64,000 nucleotides of DNA, taken from contig CAZGQR010000003.1 in assembly GCA_964527765.1 (NCBI GenBank), positions 75,366 through 139,365 on the forward strand, in the 5' to 3' direction. The DNA comes from an uncultured Planctomycetia bacterium. GTDB lineage: Bacteria > Omnitrophota > Gorgyraeia > Tantalellales > Tantalellaceae. A program made the translations under genes and the position numbers. Below the pieces are notes generated by a model. The model was not told where the DNA came from and did not search any database. It saw nothing but the letters and a program-made list of their open reading frames with translations. Shown piece by piece: positions 54,130 through 58,778 of the stretch. Each line of letters starts with the position of its first letter. The first letter of the stretch is position 1.

Positions 54130-56175
54130 ATGAAATTAAGCTATAGCTGGTTAAAAGAATACGTGGATATCAATGTTGCTCCCGGGAAACTCGCCGGGGG
54201 GCTGACCATGTCCGGTTCGGAAGTGGAAGCCGTGCATGACGCCGACGGCGACAAGGTCATGGACCTGGAGATAACCGCCAACAGGCCGGATTGTCTGAAT
54301 ATCATAGGCCTTGCCAGAGAGGTCTCCGCGGTGTTCGATAAAGATCTCTCCCTCCCCGCGATGGGGATCCCGGAAAAAGCGCCTCGCGGGAAAGGGCCCG
54401 GGATAGAATGCGCGATAAAGAGCAGGAAGCTATGCCCGCGCTACACGGCCAGGGTCATATCGGATGTTAATGTGAAAGAAACAAGCGGAGGAATAAGGAA
54501 AAAGCTGCTCGCCGAGGGCCTGCGCGCGGTCAACAATGTCGTGGATGTGACGAATTTTTGTCTGATGGAAACGGGACAGCCGTTGCACGCTTTCGATCTG
54601 GATAAGCTGCGCGGAGGAAAAGTGATCATCCGCGAAGCTGCCAAAGGAGAAAAGATAACCACCATTGACGGGGAACAGAGGGAACTTGGACCCGGCATGC
54701 TGGTCATTGCGGATTCGGACCGGCCGGTGGCCATTGCCGGTATCATGGGAGGCAAGGATACGGAAGTCACCGAGAGCACCAGGAACGTGCTCCTGGAAAG
54801 CGCTTATTTTGATCCCATCTCCGTAAGGCGGACGTCCCGGGTCCTGGGGATCTCAAGCGATTCCAGTTACCGCTTCGAACGCGGCGTGGACAAGGGCATG
54901 ATACAGGCGGCGTCCGACCGTGCCGCCGGCCTGATCTCCGCGGAGACCGGCGGAAAGATATGCGAGTTCCATGATGCCGGCACGCTTGTTCCCGATAATG
55001 TGACAATAGAGTTCAACGTGGGGGAAGCAGAGAAAATATTGGGCATCCCCCTGGAAAAGAAAAAGGTGGAACGTATATTCCGGAGACTGGGAATGGCGGT
55101 CTCCTCCGGCAAGGCCGGTAAATTGAAAGTAGGCATCCCGACCTTTCGGGAAGACTTGAGGGAAAGGATAGATCTGGTCGAAGAGGTTGCCAGGATATAC
55201 GGGTATGACAACATCCCCGCGACGATAACAAAATTTATCCCGCAGGTCAAAAGAAAAGAACGCTCCCGCAAGATTCTGGAAGAGCTGTATGAGATACTTC
55301 CCGCGCTGGGCTTGAGCGAGATCATGACATACAGCTTGGTAAGCGAGGAGGCGGCCGGAAAGTTCCCGGTCGTCACCGAGGATACGGTCAAACTCATCAA
55401 TCCTTTATCGGAAGATCACAAGGTGCTGACCCCGCAGCTATTGGACGGGATGTTGCGGGCCATTTCGTGGAACCTGAACAGGAAAAACGCGGATCTCGCT
55501 TTTTTTGAGATAGGGAAGATCTATTGTCGTCCGGGAGGAAAGGACAAATTTCAGGAGACCCCGGCGGTGTGTGTCGGGCTGACCGGGCTTCTGCGGAAAA
55601 ACTGGCGGGAAGGCGAACGCCCCGTGGATCTTTATGACCTCAAAGGGATCCTGGAAACGGTGTTTTCCAGGCTGAGGATCCCGGCGGCATTTCATGGGAC
55701 CAGGATCAGGGGACTGGAGAATTGCGGCGAGGCAAGGCTTCCGGACGGTGACGTGAATATCGGGTTCTTCGGCGAGGTGGGCGCAAAACTTCTGGATGAG
55801 TACGATATTTCGCAGCGCGTTTATGTCTGCCAGATCAAACTAGACGAGATCATAGAAAAAGCGGTCCTGGAAGACCATTATCATGCCGTTCCGCGCTTTC
55901 CTTCATCTTCGAGGGATATTTCCGTTCTTTGCGACCGGCCCCTTACCGCCGGAGAGATCAGCGCCGTCATAGCGGAGACCGGAGAGGAAATAATCCGCGG
56001 GATCGAGCTCACGGATGTTTATGAGGGCAAACAGATCCCGGCGGATAAGAAGAGCCTTTCTTACAGCATCAGATACGGACTGGACACGCGCACCCTGACG
56101 GACGAGGAAGTTGAAGCCGTGCATTCAAAGATCAAAGAGGCTCTTGAAAAGAAATTCGGCGTTACCTTCCGGTAA
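54130..56175 (+). CDS. pheT: Phenylalanine--tRNA ligase beta subunit (short form lacking the OB-fold tRNA-binding B2 domain)
   Basis: MKLSYSWLKEYV..., B3/4, B5 and FDX-ACB regions. 681 aa. The sequence passes from ...SGSEVEAVH directly to DLEITANRPDCL. Confidence 0.92.
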   Translation: MKLSYSWLKEYVDINVAPGKLAGGLTMSGSEVEAVHDADGDKVMDLEITANRPDCLNIIGLAREVSAVFDKDLSLPAMGIPEKAPRGKGPGIECAIKSRKLCPRYTARVISDVNVKETSGGIRKKLLAEGLRAVNNVVDVTNFCLMETGQPLHAFDLDKLRGGKVIIREAAKGEKITTIDGEQRELGPGMLVIADSDRPVAIAGIMGGKDTEVTESTRNVLLESAYFDPISVRRTSRVLGISSDSSYRFERGVDKGMIQAASDRAAGLISAETGGKICEFHDAGTLVPDNVTIEFNVGEAEKILGIPLEKKKVERIFRRLGMAVSSGKAGKLKVGIPTFREDLRERIDLVEEVARIYGYDNIPATITKFIPQVKRKERSRKILEELYEILPALGLSEIMTYSLVSEEAAGKFPVVTEDTVKLINPLSEDHKVLTPQLLDGMLRAISWNLNRKNADLAFFEIGKIYCRPGGKDKFQETPAVCVGLTGLLRKNWREGERPVDLYDLKGILETVFSRLRIPAAFHGTRIRGLENCGEARLPDGDVNIGFFGEVGAKLLDEYDISQRVYVCQIKLDEIIEKAVLEDHYHAVPRFPSSSRDISVLCDRPLTAGEISAVIAETGEEIIRGIELTDVYEGKQIPADKKSLSYSIRYGLDTRTLTDEEVEAVHSKIKEALEKKFGVTFR

Positions 56176-56243
56176 AATTGTTCTTGATCCGGTTTTTATT
56201 GCAATGAATTCCATTGCGCCCGCCCCGCGGGTGGTGATATAAT

Positions 56244-56437
56244 AAATCCGTTACGATCTGTTTGACTCGTGAAGCGGGTTTATCGAATTGGGCCAACACT
56301 ATAGAACTGGGAGCCTAGCTCTGGCATTCTCTCGGGATTGTCAGGAGGGCACCCACCTGGACTACCAGGACACCAATTCTTTTCCTGCGCACGGTCTGAC
56401 GGATTTGGGGCCGGATTCATATCCGGCCCTAATTTTT
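56244..56437 (+). ncRNA. Candidate structured RNA / leader between pheT and rarA, ending in an intrinsic terminator
   Basis: Extended -10 TGATATAAT (56235-56243). Complementary 8-mers AAATCCGT (56244-56251) / ACGGATTT (56399-56406), 7-mers GAATTGG (56285-56291) / CCAATTC (56373-56379), hairpin CCTGG-ACTA-CCAGG (56356-56369). Terminator GGGCCGGAT-TCAT-ATCCGGCCC plus TAATTTTT (56408-56437). Confidence 0.3.
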
Positions 56438-56461
56438 CTCAAGCGGTTCAGAGAGGATAAT

Positions 56462-57790
56462 ATGGACCTGTTCGCAAAAAAGACGCATGAAGAAAAGACA
56501 GCTTCTCTCTCGGTCCGGATGTGCCCCGTGAAGCTTGCGGATTTTCTGGGGCAGGAACATATAGTCGGCGAGGGAAAGCTTCTGCGCAGGGCGATCGAGG
56601 CGGATCGGATAAGTTCCGTGATATTTTACGGCCCTCCCGGAGCGGGGAAGACCGCGCTTGCCATGGTGATATCCAAAAGAACGGGAGCGCGGTTCGTAAG
56701 AAGGAACGCCGTTTCCAGCAACGTGGCGGAGATCCGGAAGATAGTCGAGACCGCGAAAAAACAGAAAGAGCTCGACGGGCAAAGGACCATACTGCTTCTG
56801 GATGAGATACACCGGTTCAATAAAGCCCAGCAGGATGTCCTTTTGCCGGAAGTGGAAACGGGGCATATCATCCTCATAGGCACAACTACCGAGAACCCGT
56901 TTTTCACGGTCATATCCGCGCTCCTGTCACGGAGCCAGATCTTCGAATTCAAGCCTCTCAGCGAAGAGACGGTCCTCACGCTTCTGCGAAAGTCGCTGGA
57001 GGACAGGCACGGGGGCCTTGGAAACGAAAATGTCCGGGCGGATGAGAAAGCCCTGGAACACCTGGCAAGGATCTCTGACGGAGACGCGCGCAAAGCATTG
57101 AATGCCCTGGAAATAGCCGTTCTTACTACCGAACCCGGAAAAGACGGCATTATTCATGTCACGCTGAAAGAAGCGGAAGAGTCCATACAGAAAAAAGCCG
57201 TAGTGTATGATGCCGCCGGCGACGCGCACTATGACACGATAAGCGCTTACATAAAAAGCATGAGGGGTTCGGATCCCGACGCCGCGCTTTACTGGTTGGC
57301 CAAAATGATCATTGCGGGGGAGGATATCAGGTTTATCGCCAGACGCCTTGTGATATGCGCATCTGAAGATGTGGGCAACGCGGATCCCCAGGCGCTGGTA
57401 GTGGCGAATGCCGCGATGCAGGCCGCTGATTTTGTCGGTTTTCCGGAAGCAAAGATACCGCTGGCGCAGGCGACTATCTATGTTGCGTGCGCCCCGAAAA
57501 GCAACGCGTCTTACACGGCGATAGAAAAAGCCACGAGAGACCTGGAACTTGAGAGGACCCAGGAAGTGCCGGATCACCTGAAAGACGCCAGTTATCCGGG
57601 CGCCGAAAAACTCCGGCACGGCCGGGGATATAAATACGCTCATTCCTACAAGGGGCATTATGTGGAGCAGGAGCACATGCGCAAAAAGAGGAGTTACTAT
57701 ATTCCCACGGACCAGGGTTTTGAGAAAAAGATCAGGGAACGGATGGAGCGCTTGAAAAGATCCGAAGGGAAGACCGGGAACGATGAATAG
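56462..57790 (+). CDS. rarA: Replication-associated recombination protein A (MgsA/RarA AAA+ ATPase)
   Basis: Start at ATG 56462 after GAGAGGA. GPPGAGKT, LLDEIHRFNK, GDARKALN, SMRGSDPDAALYW. 442 aa, collinear with my recollection of E. coli RarA. Confidence 0.92.
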   Translation: MDLFAKKTHEEKTASLSVRMCPVKLADFLGQEHIVGEGKLLRRAIEADRISSVIFYGPPGAGKTALAMVISKRTGARFVRRNAVSSNVAEIRKIVETAKKQKELDGQRTILLLDEIHRFNKAQQDVLLPEVETGHIILIGTTTENPFFTVISALLSRSQIFEFKPLSEETVLTLLRKSLEDRHGGLGNENVRADEKALEHLARISDGDARKALNALEIAVLTTEPGKDGIIHVTLKEAEESIQKKAVVYDAAGDAHYDTISAYIKSMRGSDPDAALYWLAKMIIAGEDIRFIARRLVICASEDVGNADPQALVVANAAMQAADFVGFPEAKIPLAQATIYVACAPKSNASYTAIEKATRDLELERTQEVPDHLKDASYPGAEKLRHGRGYKYAHSYKGHYVEQEHMRKKRSYYIPTDQGFEKKIRERMERLKRSEGKTGNDE

Positions 57791-58778
57791 AAAAGCGATC
57801 GCGCTGATATCCGGGGGGCTTGACAGCCTGCTTGCGGCGAAAGTCATCATGGAACAGGGGATAGAGGTCCTTGGCGTGGCGTTCGTCATGCAGTTCGCTT
57901 CCCGGGACGTGCGCGCTTTCAGGGAACACGTGAATGAAGCTGCCGCCGATGCCGGGATCCCGACCAGGTTCGTCGATATTTCGGAAGAATTTCTGAAGAT
58001 CGTAAAAGACCCGCGGCACGGCTACGGGTCCAATCTCAATCCCTGCATCGATTGCAAGATCCTGATGCTGCGGTTCGCAAAAGATATCATGCGGGAAGAA
58101 AAGGCCGGTTTTGTCATTACCGGGGAAGTGCTGGGAGAGCGCCCCATGTCGCAGAGAAAGGACGCCCTGAACATGATCAGGAAAAGATCATCGCTTGAAG
58201 GGTACCTGCTCCGGCCGCTTTCGGCCAGACTTCTCGAAGAAACCGCTCCCGAAAAGGAAGGCGTTATCGACAGGGAAAAATTGCTTGATATAAGGGGGCG
58301 TTCGCGCGAGGCGCAGCTGGAGCTGGCGAAAAAGTATGATCTGCGCAAATTTTTTACCCCTGCCGGCGGATGCCTTCTGACGGATCCGATATTCGCCCGG
58401 AGATTGAAAGATCTCATTTCAAGGGATGACCTGAACACTGATAACGTGTCATTGCTCAAATGCGGCAGGCATTTCCGGCTGGATGACGAGACCAAGGCCG
58501 TTGTGGGGCGCGACGAAAAGGATAACAGGCGCGTGCGGGACCTTAAAAAAGGCAGCGATGTGATGATGCGGTTGAAAGGGCGCCCCGGTCCGTATGTCCT
58601 GCTCCGGGGGAACACAAGTTCCGAGAACGTGGAAAGGGCCGCATCTCTGGCGATAAGCCATTCCAAGGGCAAGAACGAGGAAAGCGCGGCTGTCGAGTTC
58701 TGGATGGCCGAGGAGAGCAGGAAAACCATAATGGTAGGGCCCATGGACGCGGGGGAAGTTGAACGATTAAGGGTATAA
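57783..58778 (+). CDS. PP-loop (SGGxDS) ATP pyrophosphatase, ThiI/MnmA-like predicted tRNA sulfurtransferase without THUMP or rhodanese domain
   Basis: ALISGGLDSLLAA PP-loop, NPCIDCK and GGCLLTD cysteines, ITGEVLGERPMSQ. 331 aa. 8-nt overlap with rarA. Confidence 0.5.
   Translation: MNRKAIALISGGLDSLLAAKVIMEQGIEVLGVAFVMQFASRDVRAFREHVNEAAADAGIPTRFVDISEEFLKIVKDPRHGYGSNLNPCIDCKILMLRFAKDIMREEKAGFVITGEVLGERPMSQRKDALNMIRKRSSLEGYLLRPLSARLLEETAPEKEGVIDREKLLDIRGRSREAQLELAKKYDLRKFFTPAGGCLLTDPIFARRLKDLISRDDLNTDNVSLLKCGRHFRLDDETKAVVGRDEKDNRRVRDLKKGSDVMMRLKGRPGPYVLLRGNTSSENVERAASLAISHSKGKNEESAAVEFWMAEESRKTIMVGPMDAGEVERLRV

Follow-up and report, generated by a model that had tools for sequence, protein, structure and literature searches.

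Genomic context of the spacer

The window, a stretch of 64,000 nucleotides of DNA from an uncultured bacterium of the Candidatus Omnitrophota, carries on its forward strand a spacer flanked by pheT and rarA, whose annotation is as follows:

54130..56175, + strand: pheT, phenylalanine--tRNA ligase beta subunit, short 681-aa form, upstream neighbour of the RNA described below (Pfam B3_4, B5, tRNA_synthFbeta, FDX-ACB; NCBIfam TIGR00472 at 618 bits)
56451..56464, + strand: rarA ribosome-binding site GAGAGGA and ATG start (56462), with only 24 nt from the preceding T-run to the start codon
56462..57790, + strand: rarA/mgsA, replication-associated recombination protein A, conserved downstream neighbour (Pfam MgsA_C, AAA_assoc_2, AAA)

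The spacer measures 286 nt (56176-56461). It had been singled out in a preliminary description, made from the letters of the DNA, as unusually long for the window, and a crude gene map agrees with this, the median inter-ORF gap being about 30 nt and 6 of the 58 other gaps being at least 200 nt long.

Some features of the flanking genes are worth recording. The PheT of the window (681 aa) matched the 798-position bacterial model TIGR00472 from position 158 to 798 and is without the N-terminal tRNA-binding (EMAP/B1) region, a short form common to the Omnitrophota relatives. After rarA, and with an 8-nt overlap at its stop, comes a gene (57783-58778) whose product joins a PP-loop ATPase domain (ThiI / tRNA_Me_trans type) to an NFACT-R_2 RNA-binding domain at the C-terminus and fell below every curated NCBIfam cut-off; an RseC/MucC-like gene lies next to it downstream.

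Rfam annotation of the spacer

A default Rfam scan of the 64 kb, as suggested in the preliminary description, returned six tRNAs and, as the only non-tRNA family, the 6S/SsrS RNA (RF00013). The match lies at 56252-56409, on the + strand only. With 51.8 bits it exceeds the gathering score of 46.4 (whole-window E = 2e-7), and it spans model positions 1-187 and hence the full length of the family. A lineage covariance model, R1, built from 14 short-form sequences, found exactly one copy in the window, at 150 bits, a score to be read in the light of the window sequence having been in the training set. Together, the two matches delimit the RNA:

56250..56411, + strand: 6S / SsrS RNA core (Rfam match 56252-56409; lineage model match 56250-56411)

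The margin of the RF00013 match is just about 5 bits because the apical stem is shortened, and this thinness is compensated by the evidence from relatives and from covariation. The motifs flanking the central bubble, GCC-A on the template strand and GGCACCCACCU on the 3' side, fall in invariant or nearly invariant columns and align to the Rfam consensus, GCC-A in the 5' bubble strand being invariant in the alignment of relatives.

A permissive scan of positions 55900-56800 (E <= 1) detected no riboswitch or leader family, in agreement with the earlier failure to recognise a familiar riboswitch consensus in the spacer, and returned only 6S and SorY. The SorY hit, placed on the terminator, is at chance level, its 19.5 bits falling short of a gathering score of 111.

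We therefore regard the spacer, with high confidence, as the canonical 6S (SsrS) RNA gene of a Candidatus Omnitrophota bacterium, equipped with a predicted promoter and terminator of its own. One of the two readings first offered for it, an independent small RNA of about 190 nt, 6S-like in size and with its own promoter and terminator, is thus borne out by a match above the gathering score and by covariation. The gene is of an already known kind, detectable by routine Rfam annotation, and is not a new riboswitch. A literature search for 6S RNA together with Omnitrophica found no papers.

Distribution and gene neighbourhood in relatives

Using the RarA protein as query, 80 loci (L001-L080) were collected from species-representative genomes. 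The closest of them, at 60-80% identity, belong to Candidatus Omnitrophota metagenome-assembled genomes, with Ca. Makaraimicrobium thalassicum as the best relative, followed by Planctomycetota and Nitrospirota. In the first three batches of 20 loci, Rfam placed a 6S RNA at or above the gathering score upstream of rarA and on the same strand in 12, 20 and 15 loci, respectively (47 loci), and the RF00013 scores of these homologues ranged from 48 to 105 bits. The R1 model recovered exactly one copy in each of 66 of the 80 loci, including scores of 75-106 bits on four Omnitrophota loci outside its training set. When R1 and Rfam were combined, a 6S RNA preceded rarA on the same strand in 68/80 loci, drawn from Omnitrophota, Planctomycetota and Nitrospirota; four of the 12 loci without a match (L008, L009, L012 and L071) have too little upstream sequence to judge.

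Within Omnitrophota the whole block pheS-pheT-6S-rarA-PP-loop-rseC is kept. In the Nitrospirota loci, ftsY and a ZapA-like ORF stand upstream of 6S in place of pheT while the 6S-rarA pair persists, which identifies rarA as the partner of 6S across phyla. 6S always precedes rarA, at a distance that varies from about 15 to about 500 nt, being about 450 nt in Nitrospirota and 90-150 nt in some Planctomycetota. Examples of the span from 6S to rarA are:

L011, 2060-2249
L019, 2820-3001
L037, 2322-3001
Window, 56250-56464

The upstream region of one Nitrospirota locus (L037, 883-2502) shows the order ftsY, ZapA-like ORF (1879-2151), 6S, the ZapA call having been made by eye on the translation. This ZapA-like ORF-6S order resembles the zapA-ssrS neighbourhood of Escherichia coli.

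The gap between 6S and rarA in Nitrospirota, about 400-450 nt long in some 40 loci (L037, 2505-2950), is conserved at the nucleotide level, a blastn search with the L037 gap having matched 35 of 40 other loci. It gave no Rfam match at E <= 1 and contained no conserved ORF apart from an N-terminal extension of RarA. It may represent a long structured rarA leader or an undescribed non-coding RNA.

Secondary structure

The minimum free energy (MFE) of the segment 56240-56440 was -84.3 kcal/mol, compared with -56.7 +/- 4.3 in 200 dinucleotide shuffles, none of which folded as well (z = -6.4). MFE and centroid folds were identical and describe a 6S-type rod, with a closing stem, a central bubble and an apical stem-loop, made up of the following parts:

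5' strand 56255..56278 and 3' strand 56384..56405, + strand: closing (terminal) stem, interrupted (MFE pairs; consensus helices 1-3)
56285..56291 with 56373-56379, + strand: helix P2 or downstream duplex, GAAUUGG with CCAAUUC (MFE; consensus helix 4)
56292..56307, + strand: 5' strand of the central bubble, GCCAACACUAUAGAAC (unpaired in MFE and consensus folds)
56308..56355, + strand: apical (internal) stem-loop (MFE; consensus helices 5 and 6)
56356-56372, + strand: 3' strand of the central bubble, holding a small hairpin
56356..56369, + strand: the small hairpin CCUGG-ACUA-CCAGG in the 3' strand of the bubble (MFE)

The apical stem-loop is shorter than the Rfam consensus, with approximately model positions 82-113 deleted. 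Across 14 relatives, pairing in the 3'-bubble hairpin amounts to 87% and its covariation is weak.

The motifs listed in the preliminary description all occur at the coordinates given there, and several of its complementary segments can be assigned to this fold. The inner 7-mers, GAATTGG (56285-91) and CCAATTC (56373-79), are exact complements and form helix P2, and the CCTGG-ACTA-CCAGG hairpin (56356-69) is the one found in the bubble by the MFE fold. The outer 8-mers, AAATCCGT (56244-51) and ACGGATTT (56399-406), are also exact complements, but the helix they would form is not conserved: its 5' arm lies upstream of the predicted transcription start, the complement is absent in two relatives (L001 and L003), and the conserved closing stem uses 56255-62 instead, its outermost pairing being 56255-56262 with 56398-56405. 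The caveat originally attached to this helix, that it would be partly untranscribed if the promoter is used, was correct. Likewise, the local GAGC-CTA-GCTC hairpin (56311-21) is present in the window but is not a conserved pairing, since 5-6 of 14 relatives cannot form its inner pairs; for 13-14 of the 14 sequences the same columns support long-range apical-helix pairing, and 5-6 compensatory changes accompany it.

Covariation

Comparative folding, which had been proposed together with the two initial readings, recovered the rod with strong covariation in relatives. RNAalifold predicted it from plain MAFFT alignments, with compensatory double changes in 18 of 34 pairs in a first alignment and in 17 of 33 in a second. 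In a structural alignment of 65 distinct sequences, 92.8% of the cells form standard pairs, compared with 42-47% in a control in which the 3' partners were slid by 1-3 columns, and 35 of 46 pairs show changes on both sides; none of 500 shuffles reached any of the observed covariation measures. The structural alignment was fitted to the model and leans toward the structure, a bias of which the MAFFT-based results are independent. By element, the closing stem (helices 1-3) is 93-95% paired with 14 of 19 pairs compensatory, all seven pairs of P2 (helix 4) are compensatory across the 65 distinct sequences, and the apical helices 5 and 6 have 13 compensatory pairs out of 17.

This pattern of substitution bears on whether the spacer holds a small protein gene. 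ORFs of 40-46 aa do exist there, in a mechanical sense, at 56338-56460 (+), 56280-56420 (-) and 56162-56299 (-), but relatives differ by paired, compensatory substitutions of the kind seen in RNA helices, indels between relatives fall inside the ORFs, and the region matches the 6S family in Rfam. A coding function for these ORFs can practically be dismissed.

Promoter, terminator and predicted transcript

The elements that delimit the 6S gene on either side of the rod are:

56214..56219, + strand: -35-like hexamer TTGCGC, weak, 18 nt upstream of TATAAT
56235..56243, + strand: extended -10 element TGATATAAT of the 6S gene (pattern search)
56406..56438, + strand: intrinsic terminator, hairpin 56405-56432 and TTTTT 56433-37, with an 11-12-bp GC-rich stem (core GGGCCGGAU / AUCCGGCCC) followed by UUUUU

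Both promoter elements had been noticed in the preliminary description and lie where it placed them. The motif TGNTATAAT occurs four times in the window, counting both strands, against about one occurrence expected per 64 kb. Each of the seven closest relatives (L001-L007) has a perfect copy 4-15 nt before the point where the 6S model begins, and four (L001, L003, L006 and L007) also have TTGCG with the spacing unchanged. From these conserved elements, the transcription start is predicted near G56250. A simple promoter scan missed this promoter because the -35 hexamer matches only 3/6 positions.

At the other end, the terminator with a GC-rich stem upstream of rarA is present as first described, although its distance to rarA needs correction: the T-run ends 13 nt before the ribosome-binding site and about 24 nt before the start codon, rather than 25 nt before the ribosome-binding site. 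Hairpin and T-run are conserved in the same seven relatives, whereas more distant ones have a U-run directly after the closing stem and no separate hairpin. In the window, the terminator hairpin (56406-56431) abuts the rod (56255-56405) without overlapping it. The predicted primary transcript would thus run from about 56250 to about 56437, approximately 188 nt, of which the 6S core accounts for about 160 nt.

The terminator stem itself, GGCCGGAU/AUCCGGCC (56408-56429), is nearly unchanged in L001-L007 while the loop varies, the RarA proteins of these loci being only 72-80% identical to that of the window. Such conservation exceeds what a generic terminator needs, so that the mature RNA may keep the hairpin.

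The arrangement of rod and terminator also bears on the second reading initially offered for the spacer, a terminator-type riboswitch or attenuator, in which a ligand- or protein-sensing leader would gate the 56406-56437 terminator into rarA, the PP-loop gene and the rseC-like gene. A structured element with a strong terminator just upstream of rarA on the same strand, the lack of an obvious promoter of rarA itself, and the conserved linkage between the two would all be expected of such a leader. Against it stand the 6S match in a scan that yielded no riboswitch or leader family at E <= 1, and a fold in which terminator and rod, sharing no positions, offer no antiterminator/terminator competition. 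Moreover, many relatives have no separate hairpin, in other distant relatives 125-500 nt (about 450 nt in Nitrospirota) separate the RNA from rarA, and in some Planctomycetota 90-150 nt, and the covarying pairs outline a 6S rod whose central bubble is unpaired, rather than a ligand pocket. With no family match, no competing pairings and no hairpin in distant relatives, the attenuator is not supported, and we consider it very improbable.

Even less credit is due to the view that the region is a long 3' untranslated region of pheST, serving only as operon terminator and with incidental internal complementarity. It does begin directly after the pheT stop, and its terminator could also stop pheST transcripts; nevertheless, the structure is conserved and covaries in Nitrospirota, where zapA and ftsY rather than pheT lie upstream, a rare perfect extended -10 is conserved just before the structured part, and Rfam assigns the region to 6S.

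Relationship between the 6S RNA and rarA

Identification of the spacer as a 6S gene is compatible with the 6S RNA and rarA forming one transcription unit, through partial read-through of the terminator or through excision of 6S from the 5' end of a common 6S-rarA transcript. The rarA ATG lies 24 nt after the T-run in the window and 22-33 nt after the 6S 3' U-run in four other loci (L011, L015, L019 and L023), distances that leave no room for a separate rarA promoter and consequently point to read-through or to processing of a common transcript. A simple promoter scan found no sigma-70-like + strand promoter between 6S and rarA, and the same-strand order recurs in the 68 of 80 loci described above, from at least three phyla. 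There is also a precedent in E. coli, where 6S is co-transcribed with ygfA (PMC2848244). On the other hand, the 6S terminator looks efficient, with its 11-12-bp GC-rich stem followed by five U, the 3' portion of the 6S gene may contain a rarA promoter, and in lactic acid bacteria 6S appears to be monocistronic, with rarA upstream of it (PMC8414754). On balance, co-transcription is a possibility that we entertain tentatively.

The 6S-rarA synteny is known in Firmicutes, namely in lactic acid bacteria and Bacillus subtilis (PMC8414754). The same-strand order of 6S followed by rarA is now extended to at least three other phyla, which is the only, and mildly, novel point of the present analysis. 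A broader proposal, which we advance with still more reserve than co-transcription in itself, is that 6S-rarA constitutes a transcription unit of ancient origin shared by the phyla Omnitrophota, Planctomycetota and Nitrospirota, echoed in the Firmicutes neighbourhood, with rarA expressed via terminator read-through or precursor processing.

Predicted mechanism and comparison with known 6S RNAs

The rod, bubble and product RNA (pRNA) mechanism of 6S RNAs has been described (PMC8876501, PMC3299989), and the following model for the window is drawn by analogy with characterised members. Transcription would begin near 56250, driven by the extended -10 promoter (TTGCGC-N18-TATAAT with TG), and end at the terminator at about 56437. 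The RNA would fold into the 6S rod, with closing stem, P2, a large central bubble bearing the 3'-side hairpin, and the shortened apical stem. By mimicking an open promoter, the rod would bind the RNA polymerase holoenzyme containing the housekeeping sigma factor and damp transcription when nutrients are scarce. During outgrowth, the polymerase would use the 5' bubble strand as template for short pRNAs, predicted to begin 5'-GUUGGCCC... from a start at C56297, and these would unzip P2, of which GAAUUGG (56285-56291) is the predicted pRNA-templating strand, releasing the polymerase. At least part of rarA expression would probably come from transcripts that start at the 6S and/or pheST promoters and read through.

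Alignment to the E. coli-type consensus in Rfam predicts the start at C56297, and the resulting putative pRNA, 5'-GUUGGCCCAAUUCG, has G as its first nucleotide and GG at positions 4/5; GG at pRNA positions 4/5 or 5/6 is reported to be conserved (PMC8414754). Simulated refolding of the pRNA-bound RNA, with 8, 11 or 14 nt blocked, gave no new collapse helix and no extended 3' hairpin. A pairing between AGAACUGG (56303-10) and CCAAUUCU (56373-80), complementary by eye at 7/8 positions, is unsupported.

The ~160-nt 6S RNA of Aquifex aeolicus is a short 6S RNA of the same rod and bubble design, although it comes from another phylum and differs in sequence. With the ssrS RNA of E. coli, the prototype of RF00013, the RNA of the window shares the rod with closing stem, central bubble and apical stem, the GCC-A and GGCACCCACCU motifs, and a protein gene immediately downstream on the same strand (ygfA there, rarA here) (PMC2848244). 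Its truncated apical stem leaves it with a core of about 160 nt, compared with 184 nt in E. coli, and a dedicated intrinsic terminator hairpin separates the RNA from the downstream gene. Furthermore, it has a pre-formed 5-bp hairpin in the 3' bubble strand, a region that is unstructured in the free E. coli RNA (PMC8876501).

That small pre-formed hairpin is instead a feature of B. subtilis 6S-1, encoded by bsrA (PMC8876501). The predicted pRNA, starting with G and with GG at positions 4/5, likewise resembles those of B. subtilis 6S-1 and of lactic acid bacteria (PMC8414754), as do the TATAAT promoter, the rho-independent terminator and the proximity of rarA (PMC8414754, PMC8876501). The position of rarA is different, being upstream of 6S in lactic acid bacteria and on the opposite strand in B. 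subtilis, whereas here it is downstream on the same strand (PMC8414754). A further difference from these Firmicutes RNAs is that no central-bubble collapse helix was found in silico in the window RNA. The 6S-like Ms1 RNA of Actinobacteria is also rod-like and binds RNA polymerase, as is predicted here, but it binds the core enzyme and forms a separate family (PMC9130861); the RNA of the window matches 6S and not Ms1.

Significance

The main value of the analysis lies in correct annotation, in that the spacer, the longest in this part of the window to lack an explanation, corresponds to a standard global regulator, and a compact 6S RNA of about 160 nt is thereby documented in the uncultivated phylum Omnitrophota. 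The 6S-rarA synteny could help to find divergent 6S genes, and the neighbourhood hints at a functional link between sequestration of RNA polymerase and replication restart. If the two genes do form a single transcription unit, the level of a replication-fork rescue and replication-restart factor would be tied to the growth-phase-controlled 6S promoter.
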